This document shows positions 36,481 through 59,020 of a stretch of DNA of 64,000 bases, piece after piece; position 1 is the stretch's first letter, and each line of letters opens with the position of its first letter. A model generated the notes under the pieces. It saw nothing but the letters and a program-made list of their open reading frames with translations, searched no databases and was not told the DNA's origin. This stretch comes from Patescibacteria group bacterium (GTDB taxonomy: Bacteria > Patescibacteriota > Patescibacteriia > UBA1558 > GWA2-36-10): the NCBI GenBank assembly GCA_018819405.1, contig JAHJQF010000001.1, positions 753,469 to 817,468 of the forward strand, read 5' to 3'. The position numbers and the translations under genes were made by a program.

Positions 36481-36600
36481 TTGTCATTCTGAACTTGTTT
36501 CAGAATCTCTAATTTATTAGCCTTCATCATCTGGAGATGCCGAAGTACCCGCCTGCCATGAATACCGTCAGGCATGTCGGGCAGAAATTCGGCATGACAA
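36481..36600. repeat. hairpin repeat element copy 1 (TTGTCATTCTGAAcTTGtTTCAGAATC ... ATGACAA), 19 nt upstream of murB
   Basis: ~120-nt unit bounded by TTGTCAT / ATGACAA. Internal palindrome TTCTGAA-cttgt-TTCAGAA. Related copies at 41909 and 58844. Confidence 0.6.
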
Positions 36601-36614
36601 AAGCTTAATACTGA

Positions 36615-37211
36615 TTATTTTTCTATCACTATAAATTCTCCTTCTTGCAAAGCATGGATGGGTAAATTTTTGTCACCATAGCTCTCAAGCTCCTGATACG
36701 CCTTGTCCCAGTCCACAGGCCCGCGAGGGTCATCTATACCATAATCTGATTTATAATGCGGTATAAACCTAATTGGCAAAATCCCCAAACCGTCCATACA
36801 TTGTCGCCAATCGCAAGTCCAAAAATGTTTGACCAAGACATCAGCGCCAGCCGAAGAACCAGCTACTACTTTGCCGACAAATAAATTTTTTAGATCAAAC
36901 TTTGACAACCAATATTTGACCAAAGTATCATCACCTCCGTGTATGATAATTGCCTGATTATTTGCAACTTGTTTTTCAAACTGATCTGGGGTCGCCATTT
37001 CAAAAGTTGCTTTTATGCCTTTTGGCATAAGCTGAGCCAATGATTCTGATTTTTCAGCAAAAGAAATTTCCCAGTCTTCTCTTTTTTGCGCCCAAAAGCA
37101 TAATAAAATTTTTGGCTTGTTACCCAAATCTTTGACTATTTCTGCTAAATATTTTTTGTGCTTGTCCGGATTGTTTCTCAGGCCACCGGAATTGATAATA
37201 TATTTGGTCAT
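36615..37211 (-). CDS. peptidase S51 (PepE)-like / class I glutamine-amidotransferase-like protein
   Basis: IIIHGGDDTL...KVVAGSSAGADVL pattern resembles dipeptidase E. Weak. Confidence 0.4.
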   Translation of the reverse strand: MTKYIINSGGLRNNPDKHKKYLAEIVKDLGNKPKILLCFWAQKREDWEISFAEKSESLAQLMPKGIKATFEMATPDQFEKQVANNQAIIIHGGDDTLVKYWLSKFDLKNLFVGKVVAGSSAGADVLVKHFWTCDWRQCMDGLGILPIRFIPHYKSDYGIDDPRGPVDWDKAYQELESYGDKNLPIHALQEGEFIVIEK

Positions 37212-37996
37212 AATTTATTTTTTATCCACTTGTCAAAAATATGATAAATTTCTTCTAGATGCTTTGACTCTCTGAAAGTATGACTACTACCTTGGATAAT
37301 ATGCAATTCTTTGTCACTATTTATCTTATCATAGATAATTTTCTGATATTTGGGAATCATCAATGGATCTTCGCTGCCGACTATCATTAGTATTGGTATA
37401 GTCACTTTTGGTAATATTGGTAAAATGTCATATAAAACTATGTCATTTTTAAAATTATGCCAATTTAACTTCAAGCTGACTTCCGGCTGGTTGGGATCTT
37501 TAGAAATATAATTACCAATATGCCAACCTGTTTTTTCTACTTCGGCTACTTTGTCTGGCGGCAAAAATCTTTCCAAAACTTTTTGACCGTTGTAAGCTAC
37601 AGCTAAGGGCGCTATGGCTTTTACTTTTTTTGTATAATTATCAAGATAGATCATAACACTGGCCGCTCCTGCGCTATGTCCCACCAGGACAAAAGGCTCC
37701 TCGTACCACAATTGTTTACTAGTCCAGTTAACTACATCTTCCAAATCCTGATAATAAGAAGTCTGCGTCGCCGTAGAAAAATCACCTTCGCTCTCCCCAA
37801 TGCTGTCGGCGGCATCAAAGATAATAGTAGTATAATTATTTTCTATAAACGCTTTATTGATAATTTGGACATGAGATTGTTCTTTAAAACCTCCCAATCC
37901 ATGACAAATGAAAACTAAGCCTTTTTGATTTTTGGCTATCTCTACAATGACTGATAATTTTTCTCCTTGACGATTTTTGATAAATAATTTTTTCAT
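37208..37996 (-). CDS. alpha/beta-fold hydrolase
   Basis: Nucleophile elbow GHSAGA. About 260 aa. Confidence 0.6.
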   Translation of the reverse strand: MKKLFIKNRQGEKLSVIVEIAKNQKGLVFICHGLGGFKEQSHVQIINKAFIENNYTTIIFDAADSIGESEGDFSTATQTSYYQDLEDVVNWTSKQLWYEEPFVLVGHSAGAASVMIYLDNYTKKVKAIAPLAVAYNGQKVLERFLPPDKVAEVEKTGWHIGNYISKDPNQPEVSLKLNWHNFKNDIVLYDILPILPKVTIPILMIVGSEDPLMIPKYQKIIYDKINSDKELHIIQGSSHTFRESKHLEEIYHIFDKWIKNKL

Positions 37997-38598
37997 AAAC
38001 CAAGTTTTTCTTTTATAATCTCAAACATTAATTTATGTCCATCTGCGTTGGGATGTAATCCGTCGTGTAATAATTTTTTATAATCTTTTTGTTTTAAAAA
38101 TTCAGAATATATATCTATATAACTTAGATTATTTTGCTTACAAATATCTTTTATAATTTTATTATTATTCTCAATACGATTATTATTATAATTTCTATTA
38201 ATGTGCCACGGTATTGGATTTGTTTTTGTTTCATCAACAGGCGTACAACTTAAAAATATTATTTTATTAGTAAAATATTTAGCCTGGGAAATCAATTCTT
38301 TAATATTATTTTTAAAATCCAGATTAGATACTCTAACTTTCTTTTCTTTATTTAAATATTGACTATCATTTATACCAATAGCAAAAACTATAATATCTGG
38401 ATTCCTAACCTCTGCTTCTGCTTTAAATCTATCTAGGACTTCTCCTGATATGTCACCGGAAATACTCATATTATAAACACGATGATCTCTATCTTGTTTT
38501 CGCAAATATGTAGTCAATCTACTAACCCAGCCACCAAGTTCCATATCACCGGCTCCATAAGCTATACTATCTCCCCAGATGCAAATTTTTTTGCCCAT
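37993..38598 (-). CDS. SGNH/GDSL hydrolase
   Basis: N-terminal ICIWGDSIAYGAGD (GDS block I) and a C-terminal DGLHPN (DxxH) block. Confidence 0.7.
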   Translation of the reverse strand: MGKKICIWGDSIAYGAGDMELGGWVSRLTTYLRKQDRDHRVYNMSISGDISGEVLDRFKAEAEVRNPDIIVFAIGINDSQYLNKEKKVRVSNLDFKNNIKELISQAKYFTNKIIFLSCTPVDETKTNPIPWHINRNYNNNRIENNNKIIKDICKQNNLSYIDIYSEFLKQKDYKKLLHDGLHPNADGHKLMFEIIKEKLGL

Positions 38599-38603
38599 AA
38601 TAA

Positions 38604-39959
38604 TTAATCAATTATTTCTCTAGCTAGATTATCAATATCCCCTGCTCCAATAAACAAAATCACACTGTCAGTAGGATTGATGGTTTTCAAAATATTTTTT
38701 ATTTCTTTGAAATCACGGGCAAAATATTTTTTTGAGTTGAGCATTTTGTCAATTATATCCTGACCAGATACTTTATCTATTTTTTTATCCTCCCGGCCAG
38801 CCACATGATAGACCTCAGAAATTATCACCTGATCAGCTAGATAAAATGCCTTGGCAAACTGATCCAGAAGTGTCTTGGTTCGATTGTGATGATGAGGTTG
38901 AAAAACAGCAATTATTTTTTTGTCCGGATAAAAATCTTTGGCTCCGCGTAGCAAACCAACGATTGCATCAGGATGATGAGCATAATCTGATACCACAATA
39001 TTTGATTTTATATTTCCAATTATTTCAAAACGCCGCCAAGTACCTTTGAAATCACTCAAACAATTCCAAATCTGATGTTTGTTTACATTCAGATAATCAG
39101 CCACTGCTGTAGCTGACAGGGCGTTGTAGACGTTGTAGAGTCCTGGCACTGACAATTCTAATTTTTCTAACTTATTAGTATCAAATATTTGTTTGCCATC
39201 CTCTATCTCCAAATTTTTGAAAAAGTAATCAGCTTTTTCTGATTTACCATAGGTCAAAGTCTGACCGCTATATTTTATATTTTGACTATTTTTGTCATCA
39301 ATATTTTTGACTAGCAAGCCGTCAGGCGGCAACTTGGCCACAAATTTTTGAAAATGTTTTTTGATATCCGACAAATCTTTATAATAATCCAAATGATCTT
39401 CGGCAATATTGGTAATAACAATTATATTGGGATCAAGCTCTAGCATATGAGCTTGCCATTCGCAGGCTTCAACTACCAATATATCAGACTCTCCCAGCCT
39501 AAAATTACTACCCCACTGTGGCACTAAAGAGCCAACAATCACCGTTGGATCCAGACCGGCTTTTTCCAAACAAAGTCCCAACATAGCAGTAGTTGTGGTC
39601 TTTCCGTTGGTACCGGACACGGCAATAGTCTTATAATTTTTTGATAGCCAGCCCAAAAACTGAAAATAAGTCATAACAGGAATTTTGAGATTTTTAGCTT
39701 TGGCCAGTTCAGGATGATCGTCAGGCAAAGCTGAGGAATAGACAAATAAGTCAATGTCTTTTGGTACATTAATGGCCTTTTGCTTGAAAAAAATATTTAC
39801 TCCCGCATTTTCCAAACGTTTGGTCACTTCTGATTTGACCAAATCTGAACCAAGAACTTGTTTTTTTTGTCCCAAAAAATAATAAGCCACTGCAGACAAT
39901 CCAATGCCGCCAATGCCAGAAAGATATACCTTATTTATTTTTTGTAAATCTATGGTCAT
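38604..39959 (-). CDS. murC: UDP-N-acetylmuramate--L-alanine ligase
   Basis: GIGGIGLSAVA and AVSGTNGKTTTTAM Mur ligase motifs. Confidence 0.85.
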   Translation of the reverse strand: MTIDLQKINKVYLSGIGGIGLSAVAYYFLGQKKQVLGSDLVKSEVTKRLENAGVNIFFKQKAINVPKDIDLFVYSSALPDDHPELAKAKNLKIPVMTYFQFLGWLSKNYKTIAVSGTNGKTTTTAMLGLCLEKAGLDPTVIVGSLVPQWGSNFRLGESDILVVEACEWQAHMLELDPNIIVITNIAEDHLDYYKDLSDIKKHFQKFVAKLPPDGLLVKNIDDKNSQNIKYSGQTLTYGKSEKADYFFKNLEIEDGKQIFDTNKLEKLELSVPGLYNVYNALSATAVADYLNVNKHQIWNCLSDFKGTWRRFEIIGNIKSNIVVSDYAHHPDAIVGLLRGAKDFYPDKKIIAVFQPHHHNRTKTLLDQFAKAFYLADQVIISEVYHVAGREDKKIDKVSGQDIIDKMLNSKKYFARDFKEIKNILKTINPTDSVILFIGAGDIDNLAREIID

Positions 39960-39967
39960 TTTTTTAC

Positions 39968-40891
39968 TTAAGAATAAATTAAGTTTATTGGCTTATTATT
40001 CAAATATGCCTCAATATTATCAATCATGATTTTATTACCAAGCTTGTCAGTATAATCTGTATTATAGGCAATGTGGGGTGTAGCTAATATCTTTGGATGA
40101 TTTAATAATTTTTGATAATATTCATCATCAGTAGCTCCGGCTGGCATAGTGCCTTCGTCTATAGCCGCTCTATATATTTTTCCATTGTCTAAGGCTTTAA
40201 ACATTGACTTAGCATTATATACTGTATTATTACTTACAGATACAAAGAATATCCCTTTTTCCAAGGCATTAAAAAAATTTTCATCCAACAAATTGACAGA
40301 ACTATCATTAGCGCTCAAACAATTCACAATTATTTCTTGTCCCTTAACTTTATCTATCAAATTATCCCCTCTTTTGAAAAAACTTACTTTCATTTTTAAA
40401 GCTTCACATATCTCTCCCACTCTTGTGCCAATATTACCTTTCCCTAAAATTAATATCTTTCTGTCAACCAAACTGCGTGTTGCTTGTGGAGCCTTATCTT
40501 TTGGTAAACTATTATTATCTACAAAAAATAAAAGATCTCTTAATAAATTAATAACCATACCAACAATCCATTCAGCTACAGCATCTTTATTACACCCTGG
40601 ACTATTAGCAACTTTAATATTATTTTTTTCTAAAATTTCTTTATCCAAATAAGAATAGCCTACCATAGGAAGTGATATAAATACATTTTTTAAATCTTTA
40701 TAACCGTCTTTTAATCCTGATATGCCACTACAAATAATATTAGCTCCTTTAACCCTTTCTAACCACTCATCAACTGAACTTGGCCTACTGTCATAAACAA
40801 CGACATCGCCAAGAGATTTTAATCTTCCCATATCTTCAGAAGACAGACCTAAATCATGTGTAATAACTATTTTTTTCATATCATTTATCAA
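39968..40891 (-). CDS. D-isomer-specific 2-hydroxyacid dehydrogenase family protein
   Basis: Rossmann GKGNIGTRVG and the overall pattern of NAD-binding 2-hydroxyacid dehydrogenases. Confidence 0.6.
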   Translation of the reverse strand: MINDMKKIVITHDLGLSSEDMGRLKSLGDVVVYDSRPSSVDEWLERVKGANIICSGISGLKDGYKDLKNVFISLPMVGYSYLDKEILEKNNIKVANSPGCNKDAVAEWIVGMVINLLRDLLFFVDNNSLPKDKAPQATRSLVDRKILILGKGNIGTRVGEICEALKMKVSFFKRGDNLIDKVKGQEIIVNCLSANDSSVNLLDENFFNALEKGIFFVSVSNNTVYNAKSMFKALDNGKIYRAAIDEGTMPAGATDDEYYQKLLNHPKILATPHIAYNTDYTDKLGNKIMIDNIEAYLNNKPINLIYS

Positions 40892-41915
40892 CTATCTTAT
40901 CAATTAGTATTATATAATCATTAACTGCGTTTTTTGGGAAGAGGCCTGACAAATTGCGACCCAAGCCAAGGCGCAACTCCTCTTTGGTCAAAATCTTGTC
41001 CAAATACCTATCCATAATCTGCGGATTGCCTTCGCGAACCATCAAAGAAGCATTACGCTTGGCCAAAAAGCTGGCATTTCTCTCCTGATGTGAATGCGGC
41101 ATGGGGATGAGTATCAAAGCTTTTTTTAAGGACGCGGCTTCTGAAATAAGCGACATCCCAGCACGCGATATTATAATATCAGCTTGAGACAAAAGATTGA
41201 CCATGCCCTGTTCTATGAATTTATAAGGAAGATAATTATCAAATTTTAATCTCTGATCCCAATTACTAGCGCCCAAGACATGATGCACTTCATAATACTC
41301 AAGCAGCTTGGGTACAAAAGGGGCTACAAACTTGTTTAGACCACGAGCACCAATTCCTCCGCCAGTAATCACTACTACAGGTTTTTGTCTGGTCTCTGTT
41401 TGATTTTCAATCGTCGGATTGCCAGTCACTACTACTTTGCTGTGCTTAAAATCTTTTTCCTGCTCTTTAAAAATCACACTAATTTTTTTGGCTACTGGCG
41501 CCATGAGTTTGTTGGCCAGACCAACAGTGATATCTTGCTGATGGACAATAACTGGCACTCTCAGCAACCAAGCAGCCCAAGCAACTGGCACGGCCACAAA
41601 ACTACCAGCAGTAAGTATAATATCTGGACGAAACTTTATAATTATTTTTATACTCTGAAAAAATCCTAATTTTATTTTGAAAATATCTACAAAATTCTGC
41701 CAAGAAAAATAGCGTCTAAGCTTACCACTTTTAATGGCTACAAAATCAATATTATGTTTAGCAATTATTTTTCTTTCTGGCCCATTTTCAGTACAGACAA
41801 AAAGATAATCAGCCAAATATTTGTCGGCTACTGCCAAAAGCGGACTGACTGAACCCAGTGTACCACCACCTGCTAATATTATTTTTTTTCTTTTATTTTC
41901 CATTTCTATTGTCAT
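40881..41915 (-). CDS. murG: UDP-GlcNAc:lipid I N-acetylglucosaminyltransferase
   Basis: GGGTLGSVSPLLAVA N-terminal motif and a C-terminal GT-B region. The first ATG coincides with the terminal ATGACAA of a repeat element, so an alternative start at MENKRKK (41903) is possible. Confidence 0.8.
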   Translation of the reverse strand: MTIEMENKRKKIILAGGGTLGSVSPLLAVADKYLADYLFVCTENGPERKIIAKHNIDFVAIKSGKLRRYFSWQNFVDIFKIKLGFFQSIKIIIKFRPDIILTAGSFVAVPVAWAAWLLRVPVIVHQQDITVGLANKLMAPVAKKISVIFKEQEKDFKHSKVVVTGNPTIENQTETRQKPVVVITGGGIGARGLNKFVAPFVPKLLEYYEVHHVLGASNWDQRLKFDNYLPYKFIEQGMVNLLSQADIIISRAGMSLISEAASLKKALILIPMPHSHQERNASFLAKRNASLMVREGNPQIMDRYLDKILTKEELRLGLGRNLSGLFPKNAVNDYIILIDKIVDK

Positions 41916-41990
41916 TCTGAATTTGATTCAGAATCTATATATTTTACTAAGATCCTAAAATAAATTCAGGACGACGAATTGATTTATCAA
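41909..41990. repeat. hairpin repeat element copy 2, overlapping the murG start codon
   Basis: TTGTCATTCTGAAtTTGaTTCAGAATC...AAATAAATTCAGG, with a divergent 3' end. Confidence 0.55.
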
Positions 41991-41991
41991 A

Positions 41992-43146
41992 TCATCTATT
42001 AGTATATTTAGAAATATTTGCCAAAATACCCATAGCCAATAAAGTAACCACTAAGTTGGTGCCACCTAGTGATATAAATGGCAGCGGCACTCCGGTAAGT
42101 GGCATCAGCTTGAGCATGCCAGAAATATTTATAAAAATCTGCAAAGATACCCATATAGTAATACCAATGGCAATTAACTTGGCAAAACTATCATCAGAAT
42201 TTTTGGCAATCTGAAACCCGCGATACATCAATACAGCAAACAATATAATAAGAGCCAGAGTAAATATAAAACCAATTTCTTCGGAAATGACCGCAAAAAT
42301 AGAATCATTGGCCGGCTGAGGTAAGTATGATTTTTGTCTAGATGCACCAAGTCCCAAGCCAAACCATCCACCAGAACCAATGGCGATCAAAGACTGCTTG
42401 ATTTGCCAACCAATACCCTGAGGATCAAGGTCAGGATTTATCCAAGCACTAATTCTACTCATCCTATAAGGAGCAGCCTTGACCATGGCCACAAAAGCCA
42501 AACTAGCAACTGAAATAATTGTCAAAAAATGTTTCCAACTAGCACCAGCTACAAAATACATAGCCAGTGAAGTCAAAGCAATGATACTAAGCGTACCAAT
42601 ATCTGGCTGTTTGATAATCATCAGACTAATAATCAATAAAATAACCACAAAAGGTATAGTAGTAGAAAGATTTTTTATGTCTTTACCCTTTTTACTAAAC
42701 CAGCCAGCCAAAAACATAATCATAAAAAGCTTGACCAACTCAGAAGGCTGAAAAACAAAACCACCCAATCGAATCCATGATTGAGCACTATACTCACCAT
42801 CTAGGCTAGTAAAAAAAACCAAAATTAACAAAAGAAAAGAGCCAAATAACCCCAACCAGGCAATACCCAGATAGCGTTCATATTTTATCCTAATAGCTAT
42901 ATAAAAAAGAAATAACCCTGGCAGCAAACCATGTATAATCTGCTGTTTTACAAATTTATAAGTATCACCATATTTGTAAAAACCCAAAGTAGAAGAAGCT
43001 GATGATAAAAATATCATACCAAAAAATAAAAGTAATCCCACACAAACCAAAAGCACAAAATCAGGCTGGTGATCATGTCCACGATTGGAGAGAAATGGCT
43101 TTATCAGCCAATGTAAAAAATTATTTCTTCTTTTTTTTATCAGCAT
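41992..43146 (-). CDS. ftsW: SEDS-family peptidoglycan glycosyltransferase (FtsW/RodA)
   Basis: About 10 TM segments. C-terminal ...GVPLPFISLGGTNLVVTLLAMGIL. Confidence 0.8.
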   Translation of the reverse strand: MLIKKRRNNFLHWLIKPFLSNRGHDHQPDFVLLVCVGLLLFFGMIFLSSASSTLGFYKYGDTYKFVKQQIIHGLLPGLFLFYIAIRIKYERYLGIAWLGLFGSFLLLILVFFTSLDGEYSAQSWIRLGGFVFQPSELVKLFMIMFLAGWFSKKGKDIKNLSTTIPFVVILLIISLMIIKQPDIGTLSIIALTSLAMYFVAGASWKHFLTIISVASLAFVAMVKAAPYRMSRISAWINPDLDPQGIGWQIKQSLIAIGSGGWFGLGLGASRQKSYLPQPANDSIFAVISEEIGFIFTLALIILFAVLMYRGFQIAKNSDDSFAKLIAIGITIWVSLQIFINISGMLKLMPLTGVPLPFISLGGTNLVVTLLAMGILANISKYTNR

Positions 43147-45579: not shown

Positions 45580-45599
45580 GATTTATTTTTATTTAAAAA

Positions 45600-45947: not shown

Positions 45948-46046
45948 ATAATATATTTATTTTACCACAAAATACTATAAAAAACCACCCCGCTATTTCA
46001 GCAATTATCAACAAAAAAGTCAATATTTTAGATTGTTTATTTATCA

Positions 46047-46075
46047 TTGACAAAATTACTAAAATATGATATAAT
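46047..46075 (+). promoter_or_regulatory. consensus sigma70 promoter (island 2)
   Basis: TTGACA(46047-52), 17 nt (aaattactaaaataTGa), TATAAT(46070-75). Confidence 0.65.
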
Positions 46076-46163
46076 ATTACATTCTGAGCTTAAGTTTTGC
46101 TCGGAACCACCGCTCTCCACTTTGGAGGGCACGCACACTACAACACATTCGAGGAGGAGCCTC

Positions 46164-46835
46164 ATGGCCCAGCGCACGATTATCAAGCCGACCATCGAGA
46201 CCATCACCGATCTCAACCAGATCAAGCACAGCAAGCCCTGGCACATCCATACTCTCGAGAACATCGTCATCCTGCAGCGCCACTGGCCCCACACGGCCAA
46301 CGTCAGCCGGCGCCGGTACATCCGCCTGGCCCGCAAGATCGGTGCCATGATGGACTATCTGCCGCTCGCCTGCGCGATGTCGAGCCCCGAACCCCGCGCC
46401 ATCGAGGCGGCGCTCGCCTTCCAGAACAAGCACACCAAGCGCGTGCCGATCCGGACCGATGACCGCCTGGGTGCCTTGTCCGGCGCCGATCCCGAACTGC
46501 TGGCCCAGATCAAGGCCGGCGCCAAGAGCCTCGGCGTCACCCCCGAGACCTTCATCCTGGAGAGCGTCGAGCTCACCGACCTGCGCAAGCAGCGTGGCAA
46601 CGAAGGCGCCGAAGCGGTTCTGGAGATGGTCGACGGCCACATGGGCAAGACCTTCCTGGTCACCAGCCACGGTGGCTCGCGCCTGGAGCTCACGATCGCA
46701 GCGCTCGTCGGCCGCGATCAGTGTGGCTACCCCTGCCAGATGCCCGAGGGCGCCATCTGCTTCCTCAGCTTCGACGACAAGCAGAACATCAACTTCGAGC
46801 ACTACCTGGTCTTCGACAACCGCCTCCTCCGTTAG
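46164..46835 (+). CDS. histidine phosphatase superfamily (branch 1, PGM/SixA-like) protein, 223 aa, GC-rich foreign composition
   Basis: SD GAGGAGGAG sits 4 nt before ATG 46164. High GC3. Three ordered motifs: ILQRHWPHTAN (RH...N), AMSSPEPRAIEAALA (SSPxxRAxxTA-like) and FLVTSHGGSRLELTIAAL (VSHGG). The track ORF start at 46047 is the promoter TTG and was rejected. Confidence 0.5.
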   Translation: MAQRTIIKPTIETITDLNQIKHSKPWHIHTLENIVILQRHWPHTANVSRRRYIRLARKIGAMMDYLPLACAMSSPEPRAIEAALAFQNKHTKRVPIRTDDRLGALSGADPELLAQIKAGAKSLGVTPETFILESVELTDLRKQRGNEGAEAVLEMVDGHMGKTFLVTSHGGSRLELTIAALVGRDQCGYPCQMPEGAICFLSFDDKQNINFEHYLVFDNRLLR

Positions 46836-46863
46836 CCGCCCCTCATCGGCGGTTGACAAACAA

Positions 46864-46903
46864 GCGGCGGTTCGCAAGTGTGCGAACCGCCGCTCTTTCT
46901 TTT
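46864..46903 (+). terminator. rho-independent terminator (island 2)
   Basis: GCGGCGGTTCGCA-agtg-TGCGAACCGCCGC followed by tctttcttttg. Confidence 0.7.
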
Positions 46904-46986
46904 GCCAATTTTGCCCAAGAGTGTAACGATTGGTGCAAAATTGAGCATCCCGCGAAGCAAAGCAAAGCGGGATTTTTTATTTTTTA
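46899..46986. repeat. repeated terminator-like element, copy A (TTTTGCCCAAGAG..CGATTGG..GCAAAAT.GAGCATCCCGCGAAGC..GCGGGAT + T-run)
   Basis: ~65 nt is ~85% identical to 54421-54486. Ends in an ATCCCGC...GCGGGAT hairpin followed by ttttttatttttt. Confidence 0.6.
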
Positions 46987-47204
46987 GATTTCTTAAATAT
47001 CATAGCTGACAAAATAAAAGCAATGGTAAAAAATATTGCTCCATAAAAACATGGCTTCAAAAATGGATTGGTGATCCCCGGTGTACAGCCAAACTCATTA
47101 TTTTGATCAGCTAACCAAATTTTTAATTCGTAGCCAAAATTTCCCCAAGCAAATAATGTGCCTGCCAGTAGGATGTAAAATTGTGTGATAATTAATTTTT
47201 TCAT
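46977..47204 (-). CDS. small hydrophobic membrane protein (last gene of the PEP-utilizer operon)
   Basis: 75 aa, two hydrophobic helices, directly downstream of 47209..48666. Confidence 0.45.
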   Translation of the reverse strand: MKKLIITQFYILLAGTLFAWGNFGYELKIWLADQNNEFGCTPGITNPFLKPCFYGAIFFTIAFILSAMIFKKSKK

Positions 47205-47208
47205 TTGT

Positions 47209-50153: not shown

Positions 50154-50751
50154 TGAGCAAACTGGTCAAATATTTTCTAAAATCCTTAAAATTTTTATAC
50201 AGATAAGTATGAATACCCAGCTTCTTGGCATTTGGCAGATTAAAATACTGATCATCTACAAAAAATACCTCGTCTGCTTTGACTTTGTATTTTTTCAAGA
50301 CATACTTAAAAGTCTTAGCAGATCCTTTTGATAATTTTAGATCATAAGTGTTTATCAAATCAAAATGTTTTTTGAGCTGATATTTATTTACGACATATTT
50401 GAACTGACCGGTTGTATTTTTAGAAAGAAGTAGTATTTTATATTCCTTATTTTGAAGTGATTTAGCAAAATTAAAAACTGACTTATTGATATGTTGAAAA
50501 GAAAGATGTTTAGATCTAAATATTTTCCAATCTTCTTTCATACCAATTTCTTTGGCGGCTAGCTCAAAGGATTGTCTTTCAGTTATCTTGCCGAGGGATG
50601 CCGGAGTAAAATATTTGTGATAGACAATATCATAGCAAATATCAAAATCTATTTTGTATTTGCGACTAATCCACCGACAAGTTTCCTTGTAGCTGCCGAC
50701 ACTCATCACACCATATAGATCTATAATAATTAGCTTTATTTTTGGTTTCAT
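50146..50751 (-). CDS. HAD-superfamily hydrolase
   Basis: Motif I IIDLYGV (DxYG, haloacid-dehalogenase-like), motif II SKNTT, motif IV FFVDDQ. Confidence 0.55.
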   Translation of the reverse strand: MKPKIKLIIIDLYGVMSVGSYKETCRWISRKYKIDFDICYDIVYHKYFTPASLGKITERQSFELAAKEIGMKEDWKIFRSKHLSFQHINKSVFNFAKSLQNKEYKILLLSKNTTGQFKYVVNKYQLKKHFDLINTYDLKLSKGSAKTFKYVLKKYKVKADEVFFVDDQYFNLPNAKKLGIHTYLYKNFKDFRKYLTSLLND

Positions 50752-52178: not shown

Positions 52179-53010
52179 TTTTCTTTTGATTTATCATAGC
52201 TACCAACCACTTTATATGAAATTCAAAATCTTTTTCCGTGCGGCTATTATCTTCATAGTAATGAGATAAACCTAACTTAGTACCAATTAGCAACTTACCA
52301 CCAGAAGCTAAAATCATCCTAAACATCTGATTACCGACCATACCATTTGGTGGAATCAATAAATTATAACCTTCTTCTATAGCTATATTTGAATCAATAG
52401 ACCAATTTTTGACAATTAATCTTTCTTTGTTTAGTTTTTTTACTATCCACTGGGCGTCAGAATAAGTTTTGTTTAACTTGGCAACAATACCACTTTTTAT
52501 ATTTCTTTTACGCTTATAAGTATCATGCCTTACTCCGCTGAGCACACAAATTCTAGGTTTAATATTAAACCCTATCATCATATTGGCCGTAATAAGTGCT
52601 TTAGAAAAACGATCTTCTTTTGTCCAAGCCTCTGGATTACTGACAAAAGCAATAAAAATTTTATTTTTATTGGGCAGCTGCATTAACACAGGATTAGCTA
52701 ATGTATTTTCTCCTGTTAATTTTCTGTAAACTTCGTAAGTTTTAAAATCATCAATTGTTCCTCTTACCATTCCTTCTACCTCTCCATTTACCAACATTTC
52801 CACCAATTTCTTTTCGGGATTATTACTAATATTTAATTTGAATCCTTTTATACTGCTTATTTTCTTTGGACCAACAATATTAATATCCGCATATTTATGA
52901 GATTTTCTTAAACTGGTTAAAATGAGCTCATCAGGTTTATCAAGGCCAAAAGCTATTTTAGGATGTCGTAATTTTAATAATTTTTCTATTTTTTGGTCAA
53001 ATTTATCCAT
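52165..53010 (-). CDS. phosphate acyltransferase family protein (Pta/Ptb-like)
   Basis: LVEMLVNGEVEGMVRGT (compare Pta GEADGMVSG) and a C-terminal LLIPPNGMVGNQMFRMILASGGKLLIGTKLGL resembling the PTA_PTB C-terminus. Confidence 0.5.
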   Translation of the reverse strand: MDKFDQKIEKLLKLRHPKIAFGLDKPDELILTSLRKSHKYADINIVGPKKISSIKGFKLNISNNPEKKLVEMLVNGEVEGMVRGTIDDFKTYEVYRKLTGENTLANPVLMQLPNKNKIFIAFVSNPEAWTKEDRFSKALITANMMIGFNIKPRICVLSGVRHDTYKRKRNIKSGIVAKLNKTYSDAQWIVKKLNKERLIVKNWSIDSNIAIEEGYNLLIPPNGMVGNQMFRMILASGGKLLIGTKLGLSHYYEDNSRTEKDFEFHIKWLVAMINQKKNGRL

Positions 53011-53013
53011 ATA

Positions 53014-53526
53014 TTATCTTTTAAACAAATTTTTAAAAAATTCAGTCCTGTCCACATTGGCTACATGAGTAAACCATTCATCTTGAAATTTGTAAGCCAA
53101 GATAAACAACCAAATCCAGACAATATTTTTCTTGTACCACTGGGCTGTCTTTTCCCGCCCTTTGAACAACTCGGCTGTAGCGTAAATTAAAAATAATGGT
53201 TCTACCAGATTAGGAAAATAAAACAGCATCATTTCATCGCGAGTAAAAAAGAAAGAAAATTGTCCGATTGTCCTAATCAAAAATGTGACAATGACTTCTT
53301 TTTTTATCACTCTCTTCCAGCCCCAAATAACTATAAAAATATAAGTAGTATAATCAGCTATTTTATCTATTAATTGATATTTTTTATCTTCCAGTCCCAG
53401 AGGAATAAGTATATCTCCATCTACTGAGTCCAAAATAAAATTGGCCCAGCCGGCAAAAAATGGAAATTTCAAAATCAAAACCGGGAAGGCAAATTTTAAT
53501 AATATTATTAAGACTATAAAAAACAT
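53014..53526 (-). CDS. CDP-alcohol phosphatidyltransferase-like membrane protein
   Basis: LDSVDGDILIPLGLEDKKYQLIDKIAD approximates the D-G-x2-A-R...G-x3-D-x3-D motif. Several TM helices. Weak. Confidence 0.35.
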   Translation of the reverse strand: MFFIVLIILLKFAFPVLILKFPFFAGWANFILDSVDGDILIPLGLEDKKYQLIDKIADYTTYIFIVIWGWKRVIKKEVIVTFLIRTIGQFSFFFTRDEMMLFYFPNLVEPLFLIYATAELFKGREKTAQWYKKNIVWIWLFILAYKFQDEWFTHVANVDRTEFFKNLFKR

Positions 53527-53548
53527 ATACTATATATTTATTAAAAAT

Positions 53549-53833
53549 TTAAACCGCCCGAACTTCTTTTACCTCGGGCATAGCCCCTCTGATTTCTGCT
53601 TCTATCAAATGCTTTAGAGTCACATCAGCTAAAATACAGTGAGCACAAGCGCCTTGTAGTACAATCTCTACAATCCCCTTTTTCTTGTCATAACTCACTA
53701 GTTCCAAATTGCCATTGTCACGCATCAAAGCCGGACGAATACGATCTAGTATTTTATTTAATTTGTCCTCATCACTGAGTTTTTTTGACGCGGCCTTAGG
53801 CTTTGCCTTGGCTTTTGTTTTTGCTTTTGGCAT
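53549..53833 (-). CDS. NifU-like (Nfu) Fe-S cluster scaffold domain protein
   Basis: ILDRIRPALMRDNGNLELVSY...GACAHCILADVTLKHLIE (CxxC). Lys-rich N-terminal tail. Confidence 0.7.
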   Translation of the reverse strand: MPKAKTKAKAKPKAASKKLSDEDKLNKILDRIRPALMRDNGNLELVSYDKKKGIVEIVLQGACAHCILADVTLKHLIEAEIRGAMPEVKEVRAV

Positions 53834-53837
53834 ATAT

Positions 53838-53912
53838 GTAAATTTACCCTGTTAAATATTTTGCCCCGCAAAATACTGCTTTGCAGTATTTAACAGGGTG
53901 AATTAATTTTTA
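53838..53912. repeat. palindromic intergenic element (ACCCTGTTAAATAtt..gc ... gcAGTATTTAACAGGGT); a partial copy at 63521-63553
   Basis: ~17-bp inverted repeat around a ccccgcaaaatactgc core. A 25/26-nt match (TTTAACrGGGTGAATTAtTTTTATA) occurs at the 3' end of the partial rmlB. Confidence 0.5.
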
Positions 53913-54389
53913 TAAAAATTTTTAAACTGACTTATTATTTCTTCTTCACCGTTATTATTATATAAAGTATAGCAGTCTATCTTTGGTTCTTCAAATATTT
54001 TTTCTAGCTCATCAGCATATTTTTTGGATACAAAATGCTGTCTACCAACAAGACGTTTGGCCATTATATCTTTATCAGCCTTGAGTAAAATAAATTTTGC
54101 TTCTGGAAAATTGTCCAACATCATTTGACGAAACTTTTCTTTTATAAAAGCTTGACTAACAATTATATTTTTATATTTTGGTTTTAATTCATTTATTTTA
54201 GCTATAACAATGTTATAAAAATCTTCTCTGTTCTTATCAGTGGCTATATCATTTTTTTTTAATTTTGTCTATCAAATACTGAGGAATATCGCTATCAGCA
54301 TCATAATGATAAAAATCAAAATTTTTGGCTATCACATCGCCCACAAAATTTTTGCCTGCGCCAGGTTGTCCAAATAGAAATATGATCAT
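53903..54389 (-). pseudogene. gluconokinase/GntK-family P-loop kinase, interrupted by a +1 frameshift in an A9 homopolymer (coding strand) at 54252-54260
   Basis: N-terminus MIIFLFGQPGAGKNFVGDVIAKNF (Walker A) runs from 54389 to the A-run and stops after KKK. Removing one A restores a 162-aa ORF joined to the track ORF 53903..54124 (...ILLKADKDIMAKRLVGRQHFVSKKYADELEKIFEEP, GntK-like). Confidence 0.6.
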
Positions 54390-54424
54390 AATTTCTTTAT
54401 TATACCATTATTGGCATCAACTTC
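54386..54424 (-). pseudogene. 13-codon remnant of a PEP-utilizer paralog C-terminus (...[13 protein letters not shown]), stop overlapping the kinase ATG (ATGA)
   Basis: 45 nt nearly identical to the 3' end of 55854..57194 (…[13 protein letters not shown]). Upstream of this the sequence becomes repeat element B. Confidence 0.55.
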
Positions 54425-54486
54425 TGCCGATTTTGCCCAAGAGCGCAGCGATTGGCTGCAAAATCGAGCATCCCGCGAAGCGGGAT
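54421..54486. repeat. repeated terminator-like element, copy B
   Basis: CTTCTGCCGATTTTGCCCAAGAGCGCAGCGATTGGCTGCAAAATCGAGCATCCCGCGAAGCGGGAT. Homologous to 46899-46973. Contains the ATCCCGC-gaa-GCGGGAT hairpin. Confidence 0.6.
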
Positions 54487-54495
54487 ATAGCTATT

Positions 54496-55857
54496 CTAAT
54501 GCTTACTTAATTTTTTAACTATGCCGCGGCTAGCGTCTACCTCAACCATATCGCCATCTTTTAAAACTTTAGTAGCATAATTAGTACCAATTATACAAGG
54601 CTTTCCCAATTCCCTTGAAACAATAGCCGCGTGACAAGTAATGCCGCCTTCATCGGTAATTATAGCAGCAGCTTTTTTCATTAGAGGTACATATTCCGGC
54701 CTAGTCATACCTGTCACTAGTATCTCGCCTTTTTTAAAACTCTCTGTCTCTAAAAATACATTGGTAATAATTTTTACCTTGCCCTTGGCGTATCCAAGAG
54801 AACCCGACTGTCCTATTATTTTATTATCAAACTGATAATCTGTTCCAATATTATCATAAAATCTATATTCAAATTTTTTTGCTCCATCAGGGTATAACAA
54901 AACTGAAAAACCATTTTTCCTTTTTGCTATTTCTGTAATATTACTTCTTAAATATTTTGTCCCTTTTTCTATTTCCTCAAACAAACAAAAATTTATCAAA
55001 TCTTTGGACAGATTAGCCGTCTCAAAAATATGTTCGGCATATCGACCCATGATTGACAGAAGCATGCCAAAATAATCTTTTCTCTGATCACGCTTGTCTA
55101 TAGCCCATTGAAAAAAATCAGTCATTCTTCTCTCCTTTTCAGATAAATCATTTTTCCAACTAGTACTTTTGCCGTTTACTTTTTTATGTATTAATAAATT
55201 TTTATACTTTTCTTGTAGTTGTTTTTTAGTAAACTCAAAACTTAATATCCGGTCATAGGCTGCCTCCAAATACTGACATTTTTCAGTTATTTGATCCCAA
55301 TTATAATCTGCCTCCACTAATCTCTTTAATTTTTTTGATCCGCGATCATAAAAAGATTCCGTATTTAAAATTGAAGCCTTGTTCCAGAAAGAATCGTCTA
55401 GCTTACCAAAACGATCAAATACATCTTTATCTAAACCAATAGTAAAAAACGTCAAAGCACTCAAACTCCAAGCATTATCAACTATGCTATTTAAGTCTTC
55501 TCCTAAATCATTATTATTTTTTATATATTTATAAGTTAATTTACTATAAATATTTTCTATCTTTTGAGAAAACTTTTTAAAATTATCCTCCATTTTAGAC
55601 AAATGTTTTTTGTCTTCCCAAACCGAATACATTGTTTCCAAACAAGCTGCTTTTGAGTGACCTAAAGAAATATACATTAGACCAATATCTCCTTTGACCG
55701 AAATTAATAAAGGAAAAGAATAATTATTTTTATAAAGAGATCTAAAATATTTACTCTGATTCCACCCCCGTGTTTGATATATCAAAGCTGAATTCAAAAT
55801 AGGAGGAGATATCTCTAAACCATCTTGAGCTTTTAAGTATAAATCAACAATACTCAT
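54496..55857 (-). CDS. PEP-utilizing-enzyme mobile domain protein, paralog 4
   Basis: [10 protein letters not shown]...[49 protein letters not shown]...[16 protein letters not shown]. Confidence 0.7.
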
Positions 55858-57194
55858 AATTTCTTTATTATACCATTATTGGCGTCCACCTCTACCATAT
55901 CACCATCTTTTAAAACTTTGGTAGCATAATTAGTACCAACCACACAGGGCACTTTTAGCTCACGACTGGTTATGGCGGCGTGAGAAAGCATACCACCTTC
56001 ATCAGTCACAATAGCCGCTGCCAGACGCATGGCTGGAGTATAACGCGGATCAGTCATTTGAGCGACCAATATATCCCCCTTTTCAATTTTTGAAATTTCT
56101 TTATAAGAATTAACAATCTTAACTTTACCCTTAACTACGCCCCTCGTAGCTGATATGCCTTGAAGCTGATCAATATAATTAATTTGTTTTTTGACAATTT
56201 GTTTTATCTTTTCTATCTGAACTTTATCTGTGACAATATTTAATGACCCATCATAGTAATAAAGAAAGTTTTTCTCTCTTTTGGCCAAGTCAATTGCCTC
56301 AGGTAATTTAGCTTTGGTTAAAATGTCTTCAATTTCTTCATAGCTCAAATTCGCCACTGCTTTTAAACTAATATTTTCAAATTTATCCTTAAGATACTCA
56401 AAAAATCTACTAATAATAAACAAACTATGTTTCCAAGAATCCACACGATCATTTCTTAAAAATATATATTCATGAAATAATATGCATTTGGCTTTTATTT
56501 CTTCATCGTCTAGCTTGGAAATAAAATTATCAAACTCTTTTTTATGTCGAGAAAATTGAGCAAATATTTTTTCTACCTTATCTCTATCCAGCTCTTTGGA
56601 CATCTTCTCTAACTCCTCAATAGTATATATTCCCTCACCAATGTAATAGCTTTTTAACCAGCCGTACTTTTCCAAGGCCATTTGTGGCCCTTCCTCCAAA
56701 AGCATTTTTTCCATCAATTGATACTGAGTCGGTTTATCAGAGTTAATAATTTTTTCAAAATCTTCGGGGAACAACCTAATTAGCTCCGGCTCGGCATATT
56801 CTATCAAAGCAAAGGGTATAAGGATGTAATCAAAAAAATCATAAACTGAGGAAATGTAATTTTTAAATAATACAAAAAGTTCTTTATCCGATACCTTGCC
56901 TACTCCCTGAGATAATATTTTCGAACTCTCCAAAATTCTGTCCCTGGCCGGAATATAATCAGTCAAATGACTCTTGTAGTTTGATAATACTCTTTGGTAA
57001 GTTTTTTTTAAAACTTTTTTATATGAAGGCTCATCAAAATAATATGAACCCATCACACCATCCTCTTCTGGTATGACCACAAAAAATTTCATACCAGCAT
57101 CATAAATTGCTTTTAGATAATAAAATTCTCTGGCTATACCATAAGGACGGGTAGCCCATTTAAAAAATTTGTATTTGAAAAATTTATCTTCCAT
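55854..57194 (-). CDS. PEP-utilizing-enzyme mobile domain protein, paralog 5
   Basis: [11 protein letters not shown]...[49 protein letters not shown]...[20 protein letters not shown] overlap with paralog 4. Confidence 0.7.
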
Positions 57195-57912
57195 TTTTCC
57201 TTAATTTAGCAATAGTGTTGCCAGCTTCCAGTAAGGCATCAAAAGTACCCGTATCCAACCAATAATGATCATATTTTTTGACATCAAGTTGCCCCTCTTT
57301 GAGATATAGATTGTTGATATCGGTAATTTCCAATTCTCCTCTGGCTGATGGCTGGAGACTCTTGGCTTTGTCTACCACAGTATTATCATAAATATAAAGC
57401 CCAGTTACCGCAAAATTGCTCTTTGGCTTGGTTGGCTTTTCTTCTATAGAAATTGCTTTGCCACTAACATCAAACTCTACTACACCAAATCTATTGGGAT
57501 CAGGCACTTCTTTAGCAAAAACACGACCACCTGATTGAAAACTCCTGATAGCCTCATCAAGAAAATCACCGTCACCGACAAACAGGTTGTCACCAAGTAT
57601 CAAAGTAACGTTGTCGCTACCTACAAAATTTTCTCCTAGTAAAAAAGCCTGAGCAATGCCCTCTGGTTTATCTTGCACTTCATAAGTGATCTTGACGCCA
57701 AAATCTTTGCCACTAGCCAGCAACTTGGAAAATTTGTGAATATTGTCCGGATCAGAGATTATCAGTATATCTTTGATACCACCGTCAATGAGAGTCTCTA
57801 AAGGATAATAAATCATCGGCCTATCATAAATTGGCAAGAGTTGTTTTGATGTCACTTTAGTAAGTGGATGAAGTCTAGTGCCGGCTCCGCCAGCAAGTAT
57901 AATTCCTTTCAT
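57184..57912 (-). CDS. rmlA: glucose-1-phosphate thymidylyltransferase
   Basis: MKGIILAGGAGTRLHPLTKVTSKQLLPIYDRPMIYYPLETLIDGGIKDILIIS. Start placed at MKG (57912). The track's upstream extension to 57951 runs through the inverted-repeat element. Confidence 0.75.
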   Translation of the reverse strand: MKGIILAGGAGTRLHPLTKVTSKQLLPIYDRPMIYYPLETLIDGGIKDILIISDPDNIHKFSKLLASGKDFGVKITYEVQDKPEGIAQAFLLGENFVGSDNVTLILGDNLFVGDGDFLDEAIRSFQSGGRVFAKEVPDPNRFGVVEFDVSGKAISIEEKPTKPKSNFAVTGLYIYDNTVVDKAKSLQPSARGELEITDINNLYLKEGQLDVKKYDHYWLDTGTFDALLEAGNTIAKLRKNGR

Positions 57913-57927
57913 ATAGTTTATTGTTGC

Positions 57928-57995
57928 GTCATTGCGAGCGTAGCGAAGCAATCTACAAGCTTTTGGATTGCCACGCCCTTCGGGCTCGCAATGAC
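57928..57995. repeat. 12-bp inverted repeat GTCATTGCGAGC...(44 nt)...GCTCGCAATGAC between rmlD and rmlA
   Basis: Perfect 12-bp arms. Shares GTCAT...ATGAC termini with the TTGTCAT..ATGACAA family. Lies 16 nt upstream of the rmlA start. Confidence 0.55.
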
Positions 57996-58004
57996 ATTTT
58001 TAAT

Positions 58005-58838
58005 TTATTTTTTATTATCTGCGTATTTTTTTATAGTGTCCTCTACTGCTTCTTTGACTGGACGCATTTTGATACCCAGCTTTGGAAGATTAAGAGAAGT
58101 CATAATATTATTTGATCTTTTTTTGTCAGCCAAACCAAGCCTGACCAATTCTTCTTCCTTTATCCATTCATTTTTGTGATTAGGATCTATATATTTTTTA
58201 TACAGTGCCAGGATTTCTTTGTGTTTGATAGAGCCTGGATTGGTCACGTGGTATATGCCCTCTGCTTTTTTTTCTAAGAGCTGATAAAAGACATCTATCA
58301 TGTCTGGTACAACGGTCAAAGAATTTTCTACATCCACTATTTTTTCGTATTTTGATAATTTATCAATCAAATTGGCTGGATGAGGCCTGTCATCAAGTGG
58401 CATGCGGATACGGGCAATACCGACATTTGGCATTTTGGCCAAGACCAAATCAGCTGCATATTTACATCTAGTATAGACTGCCACTGGATTGGCATAATCA
58501 TCTTCTGTCCAGGCCTGACCATCAGGAGCCTGACCATAAAATATACAGCCAGTGCCCATATGAAGAAGATATACTCCTTTTTTCTGACAAGCCTCGGCAA
58601 TGATAAGTGGCAGTATGGTATTGCCCTGATAGGTTTCCAATTGGTGAGTTTCACACCAATCTACATTTGGTTTACCAACAATTCCGGCTGCATTTAAAAT
58701 TGCGTCGGGTTGGTGCTCGTCTATTAATTTTTCGACATCTTCCACAGTTTCAACAATCTTGTCAGTTATGACTGCGTCGTTCCAGCTCTGGGCACAACGA
58801 ATGCCTAAATATCCTTTGCCTATTATAAGTATTTTCAT
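58005..58838 (-). CDS. rmlD: dTDP-4-dehydrorhamnose reductase-like NAD(P)-dependent sugar reductase
   Basis: N-terminal Rossmann MKILIIGKGYLG. About 277 aa. Neighbouring rmlA. Confidence 0.55.
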   Translation of the reverse strand: MKILIIGKGYLGIRCAQSWNDAVITDKIVETVEDVEKLIDEHQPDAILNAAGIVGKPNVDWCETHQLETYQGNTILPLIIAEACQKKGVYLLHMGTGCIFYGQAPDGQAWTEDDYANPVAVYTRCKYAADLVLAKMPNVGIARIRMPLDDRPHPANLIDKLSKYEKIVDVENSLTVVPDMIDVFYQLLEKKAEGIYHVTNPGSIKHKEILALYKKYIDPNHKNEWIKEEELVRLGLADKKRSNNIMTSLNLPKLGIKMRPVKEAVEDTIKKYADNKK

Positions 58839-58843
58839 TTATT

Positions 58844-58915
58844 TTGTCATCCTGAACTTGTTTCAGGATCTAGCTAATAATTAATGGAGATGCTGAAATA
58901 AATTCAGCATGACAC
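58844..58915. repeat. hairpin repeat element copy 3, 6 nt upstream of the rmlD start
   Basis: TTGTCATCCTGAACTTGTTTCAGGATC...GCTGAAataaatTCAGCATGACAC. Confidence 0.6.
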
Positions 58916-58937
58916 TATTTTAACTTAATTTTTTATA

Positions 58938-58966
58938 TTGACATTTTTATCTAAATATGATATAAT
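58938..58966 (+). promoter_or_regulatory. consensus sigma70 promoter (island 3)
   Basis: TTGACA(58938-43), 17 nt (tttttatctaaataTGa), TATAAT(58961-66). Confidence 0.65.
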
Positions 58967-59020
58967 CATACAATATTCGTTCCGCCTTGACAACACCAAT
59001 CTTAGGGAGGTTTCCAAGAA

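Follow-up and report, generated by a model that had tools for sequence, protein, structure and literature searches.

Repetitive extragenic palindromic (REP) sequences of the CGTC-tagged superfamily carry a CGTC or TGTC tag, a stem of 8–9 bp that almost always starts with AT, a loop of 4–5 nt, and a short tail led by C (consensus CCA), and they occur mainly as head-to-head dimers (Di Nocera, De Gregorio and Rocco, 2013; BMC Genomics 14:522). According to that source, the superfamily takes in Neisseria dRS3 and Rickettsia RPE-4 and RPE-6 and spans five phyla, REPs lie mostly downstream of coding regions, mRNA stabilization is among their proposed roles, and “no dedicated transposase” is reported for them (Di Nocera et al., 2013). 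Here, four hairpin elements (E1–E4) are described that occupy junctions of mur and rml genes in a stretch of 64,000 nt from a Patescibacteria group bacterium (contig JAHJQF010000001.1, positions 753,469 to 817,468; hereafter, the window), and they are compared with this superfamily and with the hairpins of a family of small nucleases.

The Ssn family consists of GIY-YIG (cd10448) nucleases of about 95 amino acids acting on single-stranded DNA (ssDNA), and the associated hairpins are termed Ssn-related motifs (SRM; NTS in Neisseria) (Chenal et al., 2025; Nat Commun 16:2388). Neisseria meningitidis SsnA binds its hairpin only as ssDNA, and not as double-stranded DNA, RNA, or the reverse strand (PMC11893778). 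It cuts a few nt 5′ of the motif; cutting requires the three nt (GTC) that precede the palindrome, and binding requires the C that follows it (Chenal et al., 2025). The binding and cleavage chemistry has been established for N. meningitidis SsnA and, in vitro, for three other homologues, whereas a lowered integration of motif-bearing transforming DNA has been shown in N. meningitidis alone (Chenal et al., 2025). The association between ssn and hairpins is itself already published: the motif lies near 71% of ssn homologues, and on both sides in 42% (Chenal et al., 2025). A text search of that paper finds no mention of Di Nocera et al. (2013) or of Patescibacteria. Taken together, the lack of a dedicated enzyme for CGTC REPs in the 2013 report and the 2025 description of hairpins of this sort on the flanks of ssn point to Ssn as the obvious candidate for that enzyme.

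E1–E4 are probably gene-less, outward-tagged dimers of the CGTC-tagged REP-like superfamily (dRS3/NTS, SRM) that act as DNA, not as RNA. With up to 3 mismatches allowed, the motif GTCATYCTGAAYTTGWTTCAGRATC was matched five times in the window, against a mean of 0.00 in 100 dinucleotide-preserving shuffles, by which a chance origin is rejected. Two of the five lie on the opposite strand, each near a plus-strand match, and hence each element consists of two modules in inverted orientation, with a spacer of 12–28 nt between them. A preliminary description of this DNA had correctly located the four elements and recognized a real repeat, but had read each as one end motif plus a terminus. All four are head-to-head dimers with GTC tags facing outward, and each module follows one plan: GTC as the 5′ tag, a stem whose first pairs are A-T and T-A, a loop, the returning stem, and a 3′ C (Table 1).

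GTC directly 5′ of the palindrome and C directly 3′ of it are present in 8/8 modules. The tag is found as TGTC in six modules and as CGTC in two (E3 left arm, E2 right arm), and the tails read CTC, CTA, CTA, CTC, CTC, CTT, CTA, and CCA, the C being invariant. A perfect 8-bp stem, AT-N-C(T/C)GAA, is formed in five of the six CTGAA/CCGAA modules; the exception is the decayed right arm of E2, in which the stem is held only via two G·U pairs, on the minus strand. Both arms of E3, which is of the GCGAG class, begin ATTGC/GCAAT. Loops measure 5 nt in five modules, 43 nt in the right arm of E1, and 12 and 16 nt in the arms of E3 if these are folded locally. The ATGAC terminus that had been assigned to all the elements does not apply to E2, which ends at 41975 rather than at 41990 and has ACGAC at its far terminus. 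The CGTC/TGTC tag, the A-T/T-A stem opening, the 5-nt loop of five modules, the C-led tail, and the head-to-head arrangement are all shared with CGTC REPs, as are the intergenic location near gene ends and the occurrence in several phyla. In contrast to those REPs, the right arm of E1 and both arms of E3 exceed the 4–5 nt loop range, and the host belongs to Patescibacteria (the candidate phyla radiation, CPR), which is not among their five phyla. The combination of an 8-bp stem and a 5-nt loop matches the geometry of their family CGTC-2, an assignment by geometry alone and not by consensus sequence (Di Nocera et al., 2013).

Table 1. Coordinates of the hairpin elements and of associated features. 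Positions are those of the window; lengths of gene junctions are in nt.
Feature	Position	Description
E1	36483..36598	Head-to-head dimer between peptidase-S51 gene stop (36615) and murB start (36462)
E1 left module	36483-36507	GTC-ATTCTGAA-cttgt-TTCAGAAT-C
E1 spacer	36508-36535	
E1 right module	36536-36598	Read on minus strand: GTC-ATGCCGAA-(43-nt loop)-TTCGGCAT-C
E1 right-module loop	36545..36587	43 nt, nested GC-rich hairpin within (fold)
E2	41911..41975	Head-to-head dimer between ftsW stop (41992) and murG start (41903)
E2 left module	41911-41935	GTC-ATTCTGAA-tttga-TTCAGAAT-C
E2 right module	41951-41975	Decayed; read on minus strand: GTCGTCCTGAATTTATTTTAGGATC
E3	57928..57995	Head-to-head heterodimer, GCGAG class, between rmlD-like stop (58005) and rmlA-like start (57912)
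E3 left module	57928-57953	GTCATTGCGAGCGTAGCGAAGCAATC
E3 spacer	57954-57965	
E3 right module	57966-57995	Read on minus strand: GTCATTGCGAGCCCGAAGGGCGTGGCAATC
E4	58846..58913	Head-to-head dimer, 7 nt upstream of rmlD-like start (58838)
E4 left module	58846-58870	GTC-ATCCTGAA-cttgt-TTCAGGAT-C
E4 right module	58889-58913	Read on minus strand: GTC-ATGCTGAA-tttat-TTCAGCAT-C
ftsW–murG junction		Window 88 (E2); relatives without element −14 to +6 (n=17); other occupants: none
pepS51–murB junction		Window 152 (E1); relatives without element 3–8 (n=4); other occupants: different tagged dimer (L126), untagged palindrome (L123)
rmlD–rmlA junction		Window 92 (E3); relatives without element −4 to +4 (n=4); other occupants: different tagged dimer (L124/L157), untagged palindrome (L134)
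Hairpin upstream of resident ssn		22 nt upstream; CGTC-ATTCTCGGG-cttga-CCCGGGAAT-CCA
Hairpin downstream of resident ssn		14 nt downstream; inverted ATTCCCGC-gaaa-GCGGGAAT
Promoter-like match	58850-58822 (−)	At E4
Promoter-like match	57991-58018 (+)	
Promoter-like match	36594-36621 (+)	
GC-rich island 1	30442-31440	Plus strand, opposite surrounding minus-strand genes
GC-rich island 2	46049-46990	Plus strand, opposite surrounding minus-strand genes
GC-rich island 3	58939-59526	Plus strand, opposite surrounding minus-strand genes
Island ORF	30803-31288	No Pfam family
Island ORF	46164-46835	Histidine-phosphatase-like
Island ORF	59021-59461	RapZ C-terminal-like, CX5RS motif

The arms of E4 differ at position 6, a difference that is compensated inside each module and mismatched from arm to arm. 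The arms of E1 likewise differ at paired positions (ATTCTGAA/TTCAGAAT versus ATGCCGAA/TTCGGCAT), so that the local stems are perfect and pairing between the arms is broken. Because these differences preserve the local stems and mismatch between the arms, the conserved unit is the single hairpin. The 43-nt loop of E1 was probably enlarged by a secondary insertion, and a similarly enlarged loop is present in a CTGAA dimer of a relative (L144; loci fetched for comparison are designated by L and a number). For E3, the motif GTCATTGCGAGC does not reach significance by itself (with up to 2 mismatches allowed, 2 matches were found and 2.2 expected); what makes the element credible are its 12-bp perfect inverted termini, which the preliminary description had rightly noted, its share in the GTCAT...ATC frame, and its relatives elsewhere. 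A strict detector of tagged hairpins identified 206 modules in 1.64 Mb (the window plus the fetched loci) and none in the reversed sequences, and all the elements fold far better than shuffles (z −3.6 to −5.9).

E1–E4 are insertions into otherwise tight gene junctions. The flanking genes had been named earlier as murB, murG, rmlD, and rmlA, and Pfam confirms murB, murG, and genes for an RmlD-like protein and an RmlA-like nucleotidyltransferase; the nearest species-level genomes are Parcubacteria and Komeilibacteria metagenome-assembled genomes with 65–75% MurC identity. Each junction that holds E1, E2, or E3 is much shorter in relatives without an element (Table 1), and rmlD of L156 and L158 follows its upstream gene after a gap of 3–8 nt, both E4 and the neighboring GC-rich island being absent. 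The placement 5′ of genes stands in that the elements lie 7–20 nt from start codons (20, 7, and 15 nt for E1, E2, and E3), but E1–E3 are equally near the preceding stop codons (16, 16, and 9 nt) and fill the junctions, with 7–20 nt of AT-rich sequence left on each side of the elements. The terminal ATGAC of E2 had also been taken to supply the murG start codon; this is unlikely, because the public gene call uses the next ATG, at 41903 (340 aa), and the N-termini of relatives, reading MENK..., align with that ATG.

The pepS51–murB and rmlD–rmlA junctions are repeatedly colonized by different kinds of hairpin element. In other Patescibacteria, these same operon junctions are filled by hairpin elements at L123 9954-10046, in the rmlD–rmlA spacer of L134, and at L126 3291-3506; the untagged palindromes, which are unrelated to E1–E4, are exemplified by GCCGTTCCGCCGAAGGCGGAACGGC and by the hairpin TTTGTAATAT...ATATTACAAA. 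E3 has an orthologue in L156 (2825-2921, against window 57912-58004) in which the first arm and spacer are identical at 52/53 positions, whereas the flanking rmlA/rmlD coding sequence is 77–78% identical (53% at rmlA third codon positions). This orthologue lies 5 nt after a 5′-truncated ssn paralogue and 13 nt before rmlA. In L157 (6865-6951), a dimer with wholly different stems precedes an identical 13-nt rmlA leader, ataatagaaacat. The pattern at this site suggests that an existing hairpin site was reoccupied, by replacement or by re-insertion, or that the copies evolve in concert.

A transposable element of the miniature inverted-repeat type (MITE) was one of two options raised in the preliminary description. 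Its mobile aspect is upheld by the insertions and by a repeat family that crosses phyla, but the elements are REP/REPIN-like hairpin dimers rather than classical MITEs. No target-site duplication was found: the flanks of E1–E4 and related copies share no direct repeat, only a T...A that extends the tag, and a classical MITE with target-site duplication is rejected on this ground. Beyond the hairpins, no long terminal inverted repeats were seen either, and no in-frame insertion into coding sequence was found in the window. RPE-4, RPE-6, and Correia-type MITEs are, like these elements, short palindromic insertions between, and at times inside, genes.

The family extends far beyond this genome. 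The pattern GTCATNCTGAA-N4-7-TTCAGNATC occurs on at least 120 IMG/VR contigs among the matches listed, many of them with dimers, and E3-type (GCGAG) dimers occur on 49 IMG/VR contigs. Sibling modules (ATTCCC.., ATTTCGAG.., ATCCCGGA.., and ATTGCGAG..) lie beside CTGAA modules in IMG/VR, with same-orientation arrays of up to seven, and different hairpin types share mixed dimers and arrays. Exact E4 25-mers are present in replicons of Sphingobium, Novosphingobium, Sphingomonas, and Tenacibaculum, and near-exact copies (90–96% identity) in Treponema and Sulfurovum. Across 1.6 Mb of loci, seemingly single modules have their tag turned toward the nearest gene end, an orientation that fits halves of outward-tagged dimers with a decayed partner. 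Identical CTGAA modules stand upstream of rpmJ in L133, between open reading frames (ORFs) of 482 and 366 aa in L144, beside unrelated genes, and in many phage-like contigs. No evidence of a preference for envelope genes was found among these copies; since the window holds mostly envelope genes, the association of E1–E4 with them reflects window sampling. A literature search with the repeat strings themselves returned only unrelated primer matches, and a metagenome scan for the PEP-utilizer protein gave one distant match and no close relatives.

The source genome itself encodes an Ssn homologue, P0156, a 96-aa GIY-YIG protein that matches PF01541, keeps the columns of the catalytic residues (Y, Y, R, H, E, and N), and is located on the same 1,035,872-bp contig. 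In locus L177, ssn (10001-10291) and rmlD (16509-17342) are 6.2 kb apart, which places ssn about 1,056 nt past the 3′ end of the window. The gene is bracketed by CGTCATTCTCGGGCTTGACCCGGGAATCCA and GATTCCCGCTTTCGCGGGAATGACT, and its two flanking hairpins (Table 1) both fit the published SRM search pattern; the downstream one, ATTCCCGC-gaaa-GCGGGAAT, is of the type of Neisseria dRS3 (ATTCCC-N8-GGGAAT), the core of CGTC-1/NTS. The whole unit is wedged between a 542-aa gene and a HIT-family gene, which in L157 adjoin each other without ssn. E1–E4 have in common with the SRM/Ssn system the GTC before and the C after the palindrome, a genome with a hairpin–ssn–hairpin unit, and hairpins that bracket genes. 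They differ from it in falling outside the published SRM pattern and in having stems unlike those beside the resident ssn; their stems also differ from dRS3, and the window has isolated dimers where Neisseria has the large mosaics of NIME arrays.

The association of ssn with tagged hairpins recurs in the sampled loci. All three GIY-YIG genes in the Patescibacteria loci (3/3) abut tagged hairpins, including a 96-aa gene in L158 that lies between two of them and whose product, a close homologue of P0156, is 63% identical to the N. gonorrhoeae homologue. So do most of 13 homologues that were taken from replicons of proteobacteria, cyanobacteria, and Bacteroidota. Among 53 ssn loci from six phylum-level groups, a GTC-tagged perfect hairpin lies within 100 nt in 32 (60%) and on both sides in 23 (43%), in agreement with the published 71% and 42% (Chenal et al., 2025), and the density of tagged hairpins is 6.28/kb near ssn against 0.29/kb further off (about 22-fold).

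Individual ssn loci show further features. On the Azospirillum lipoferum plasmid AZO_p3 (L167 1392-1898), a unit of hairpin dimer, ssn, and hairpin dimer stands between sufB and sufC of the conserved Fe-S assembly operon, and this is a clear case of insertion-like behavior. Tandem partial duplications of the tag and first stem half (TGTCATTCTCGGGCTTGA twice, TGTCATTCTGAGT three times, GGTTGGGAATGACA repeated) are found at L158 1596-1613, at L171 ~1836-1893, and in the ssn flanks of L216 and L218, and they look like footprints of repeated hairpin cutting and repair. Between Patescibacteria, Chloroflexi, Nitrospirae, Zixibacteria, and Saccharimonadia, Ssn proteins share 67–77% identity over about 95 aa, and many are encoded on very short contigs, as would fit both horizontal spread and the breakage of assemblies at repeats.

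Several observations weigh against reading E1–E4 as Ssn-type DNA elements. The stems that flank the resident ssn (ATTCTCGGG, ATTCCCGC) differ from those of E1–E4, and the SRM pattern HGTCWYN(0-2)YYVSBRHN(0-5)WNVSBRGN(0-2)RNCYNB, a heuristic derived from 29 genomes, has 0 matches in the 64-kb window and 0/8 among the modules. No ssn homologue stands beside CTGAA modules in 120 IMG/VR loci and five plasmid loci, none beside GCGAG-type dimers in 49 IMG/VR loci, and 0/53 ssn loci are flanked by a CTGAA hairpin. SsnA activity is lost when the stem sequence is changed, even with the structure preserved (Chenal et al., 2025), and transposition by Ssn has never been demonstrated. At the RNA level, the decayed arm of E2, in which the stem is kept by G·U pairs on the transcribed strand only, hints in this single case at an RNA-level constraint.

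In one alternative, the CTGAA and GCGAG dimers would have the same architecture but a different partner, either an unsampled divergent Ssn clade or an unrelated enzyme such as another single-strand transposase or recombinase, and the resident ssn would serve only the ATTCCCGC and ATTCTCGGG hairpins. The differing stems, the failure of CTGAA/GCGAG modules to fit the SRM pattern, the lack of ssn beside such hairpins in about 170 loci, and the fact that N. meningitidis SsnA reads stem sequence as well as shape all point that way, and no transposase was linked to CGTC repeats in the 2013 report (Di Nocera et al., 2013). We nevertheless regard this as unlikely: the positions that Ssn needs, GTC before and C after the palindrome, are conserved in all module types; hairpin types mix within dimers and arrays; and the dispersed copies of a system with a single-copy gene are expected far from that gene. 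GCGAG-like modules do, moreover, flank ssn in Planktothrix, Spirosoma, and L156, in the first two as related GAG...CGAAG-loop hairpins and in L156 as the E3 orthologue beside the truncated ssn. Compared with Ssn proteins including those of Planktothrix and Spirosoma, the L156 fragment shows 45–60% identity to all and no clade signal. A search of IMG/VR for a CTGAA hairpin joined to the N-terminal codons of ssn gave 0 matches, a negative of little weight, since the positive control with ATYCCCGC hairpins gave only 2, and a screen of the CTGAA loci for genes between outward-facing hairpin pairs 150–900 nt apart returned only the known ssn of L158. With regard to the partner as such, it is conceivable, and we put it forward tentatively, that the CTGAA/GCGAG hairpins are served by an unrecognized partner (a divergent Ssn clade or other enzyme), or are cut in trans by the resident Ssn through tag and shape, unlike the Neisseria enzyme.

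The second option raised in the preliminary description was a dedicated cis-regulatory RNA, a translational operator or thermometer coordinating envelope and sugar-nucleotide genes. The folding that it called for does give strong hairpins on the transcribed strand for all four elements (−24.7 to −40.6 kcal/mol, z −3.8 to −5.9), and such stable predicted structures speak for this option, as does their position 7–20 nt 5′ of the start codons in four genes with related functions. We nonetheless consider it highly improbable and, on the comparison with relatives, already refuted for the most part. The same junctions are empty in 4–17 relatives and carry other hairpin types elsewhere (L126, L157, L134), and the identical module lies beside rpmJ, unrelated genes, and in phage-like contigs. 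The start codons are not sequestered, and the murG start lies outside E2. The partner protein that has been characterized for this repeat class binds ssDNA, not RNA (PMC11893778). Rfam covariance models gave no match to the elements at gathering score, and membership of an Rfam RNA family is rejected; so is a terminator, as no intrinsic terminator (GC-rich stem and T run) was called for any element on either strand.

Co-directional genes surround each of E1–E3, and E4 is in the leader of rmlD, so that all four are probably co-transcribed with these genes, and as a side effect the transcribed elements may alter mRNA stability or translational coupling, including the uncoupling of formerly overlapping genes. 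A stronger form of this idea is that the hairpins are kept for a benefit to the host at the RNA level, through protection of upstream operon segments from 3′ exonucleases, translational uncoupling, or outward promoter-like hexamers (ATGACA resembling TTGACA). The strong predicted hairpins fit this explanation, as do the greater stability of E2 on the sense strand (−24.7 versus −17.9 kcal/mol on the other strand), the different palindromes held by the pepS51–murB and rmlD–rmlA junctions in several lineages, and the proposed mRNA stabilization role and mostly downstream-of-gene location of REPs (Di Nocera et al., 2013). However, most relatives have no element at these junctions, the hairpins are not terminator-like, and a wider count of stem-keeping pairs on the transcribed strand gave 10 G·U against 5 A·C, an asymmetry that is not significant in a small sample including chance matches. 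With respect to promoters, the outward tag ATGACA resembles the −35 hexamer TTGACA and, with the AT-rich flanks, gives promoter-like matches at 9–11 of 12 positions (Table 1). These ATGACA-N16-17-TATAAT-like matches at the element ends would favor a host benefit, but the one at E4 overlaps the rmlD start codon, and the one on the E1 side (36493-36466) stops 4 nt before the murB ATG; the best promoter-like match is probably without function because of its overlap with the rmlD start codon. We regard retention for an RNA-level benefit as improbable.

If E1–E4 act as DNA dimers, as favored here, their mechanism might be envisaged as follows. In a single-stranded state, as during replication, repair, or DNA uptake, each module would fold into a hairpin, and the 5′ GTC tag and 3′ C would serve as recognition handles for a small Ssn-family GIY-YIG nuclease, which would cut the strand that bears the tag, and no other, a few nt 5′ of the tag. 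As Ssn cuts 5′ of the tag on that strand alone, an outward-tagged dimer would present exactly one site for cleavage, immediately outside the element, regardless of which strand is exposed. The CTGAA and GCGAG hairpins may be substrates of Ssn. One possible role is single-strand restriction of incoming DNA, as shown in Neisseria; another might be an insertion-sequence-like life cycle, as the hairpin–ssn–hairpin layout suggests. In the window, E4 and E3 bracket rmlD, and E2 and E1 bracket the block from murG to pepS51, echoing the motif–gene–motif layout of Neisseria.

The REPIN/RAYT system, said to have been described by Bertels and Rainey in 2011, reportedly has GTAG-tagged REPs, and mobility is said to have been shown for REPINs. 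The elements described here resemble it in having two inverted hairpins with a short spacer, a single-copy gene flanked by hairpins, and gene-less dispersed copies, and the dimers may, as in REPIN/RAYT, be derived from, or spread via, hairpin–ssn–hairpin units. They differ in that the tag is GTC and not GTAG, the partner is a GIY-YIG nuclease and not an HUH/Y1 (IS200-like) transposase, and mobility has not been shown here. The ORFs of the window were screened for Y1 transposases less than exhaustively; the associated gene found is the GIY-YIG nuclease.

Three GC-rich islands are also present in the window (Table 1), over which 2-kb composition windows reach 41–45% GC against about 28–40% elsewhere. 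Each begins with a near-identical strong promoter-like site, ATTGACA-N17-TATGATATAAT/TATAGT, and each ends in hairpins; within the scanned region 57700-59600, no site other than that at 58938-58966 matches the consensus at 12/12 positions with TG. Island 3 abuts E4, and both are missing in relatives. Its RapZ-like ORF gave only a self-match in a word-indexed search of 5.8 billion proteins. Island 2 ends in a hairpin (46947-46979), ATCCCGC-N13-GCGGGAT followed by a T run, with an SRM-typical stem and no GTC tag, which may be what is left of a decayed motif that has come to act as a terminator. Hairpins of the forms CCCCCT..AGGGGG and CCTCCCC..GGGGAGG end island 1 (31350-31440), and very similar C-run/G-run hairpins are interleaved in IMG/VR loci L042 and L050 with six to seven same-orientation tagged modules of mixed stem types.

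E1–E4 bring a new host group into view, one named in neither the 2013 nor the 2025 paper: a CPR genome with the nuclease gene together with gene-less dimers in mur/rml operon junctions that measure 0–8 nt in relatives. They also remove the tempting but wrong label of an envelope-gene riboswitch or RNA thermometer. The published SRM pattern misses whole AT-rich hairpin classes, and motif counts based on it are thus underestimates. If true, either reading of the partner, an unrecognized one or the resident Ssn acting in trans, would bring CPR bacteria within the range of the Ssn–hairpin system. Dependence on DNA uptake is widely ascribed to these bacteria, and single-strand restriction at operon junctions could, if it takes place, shape what they acquire.

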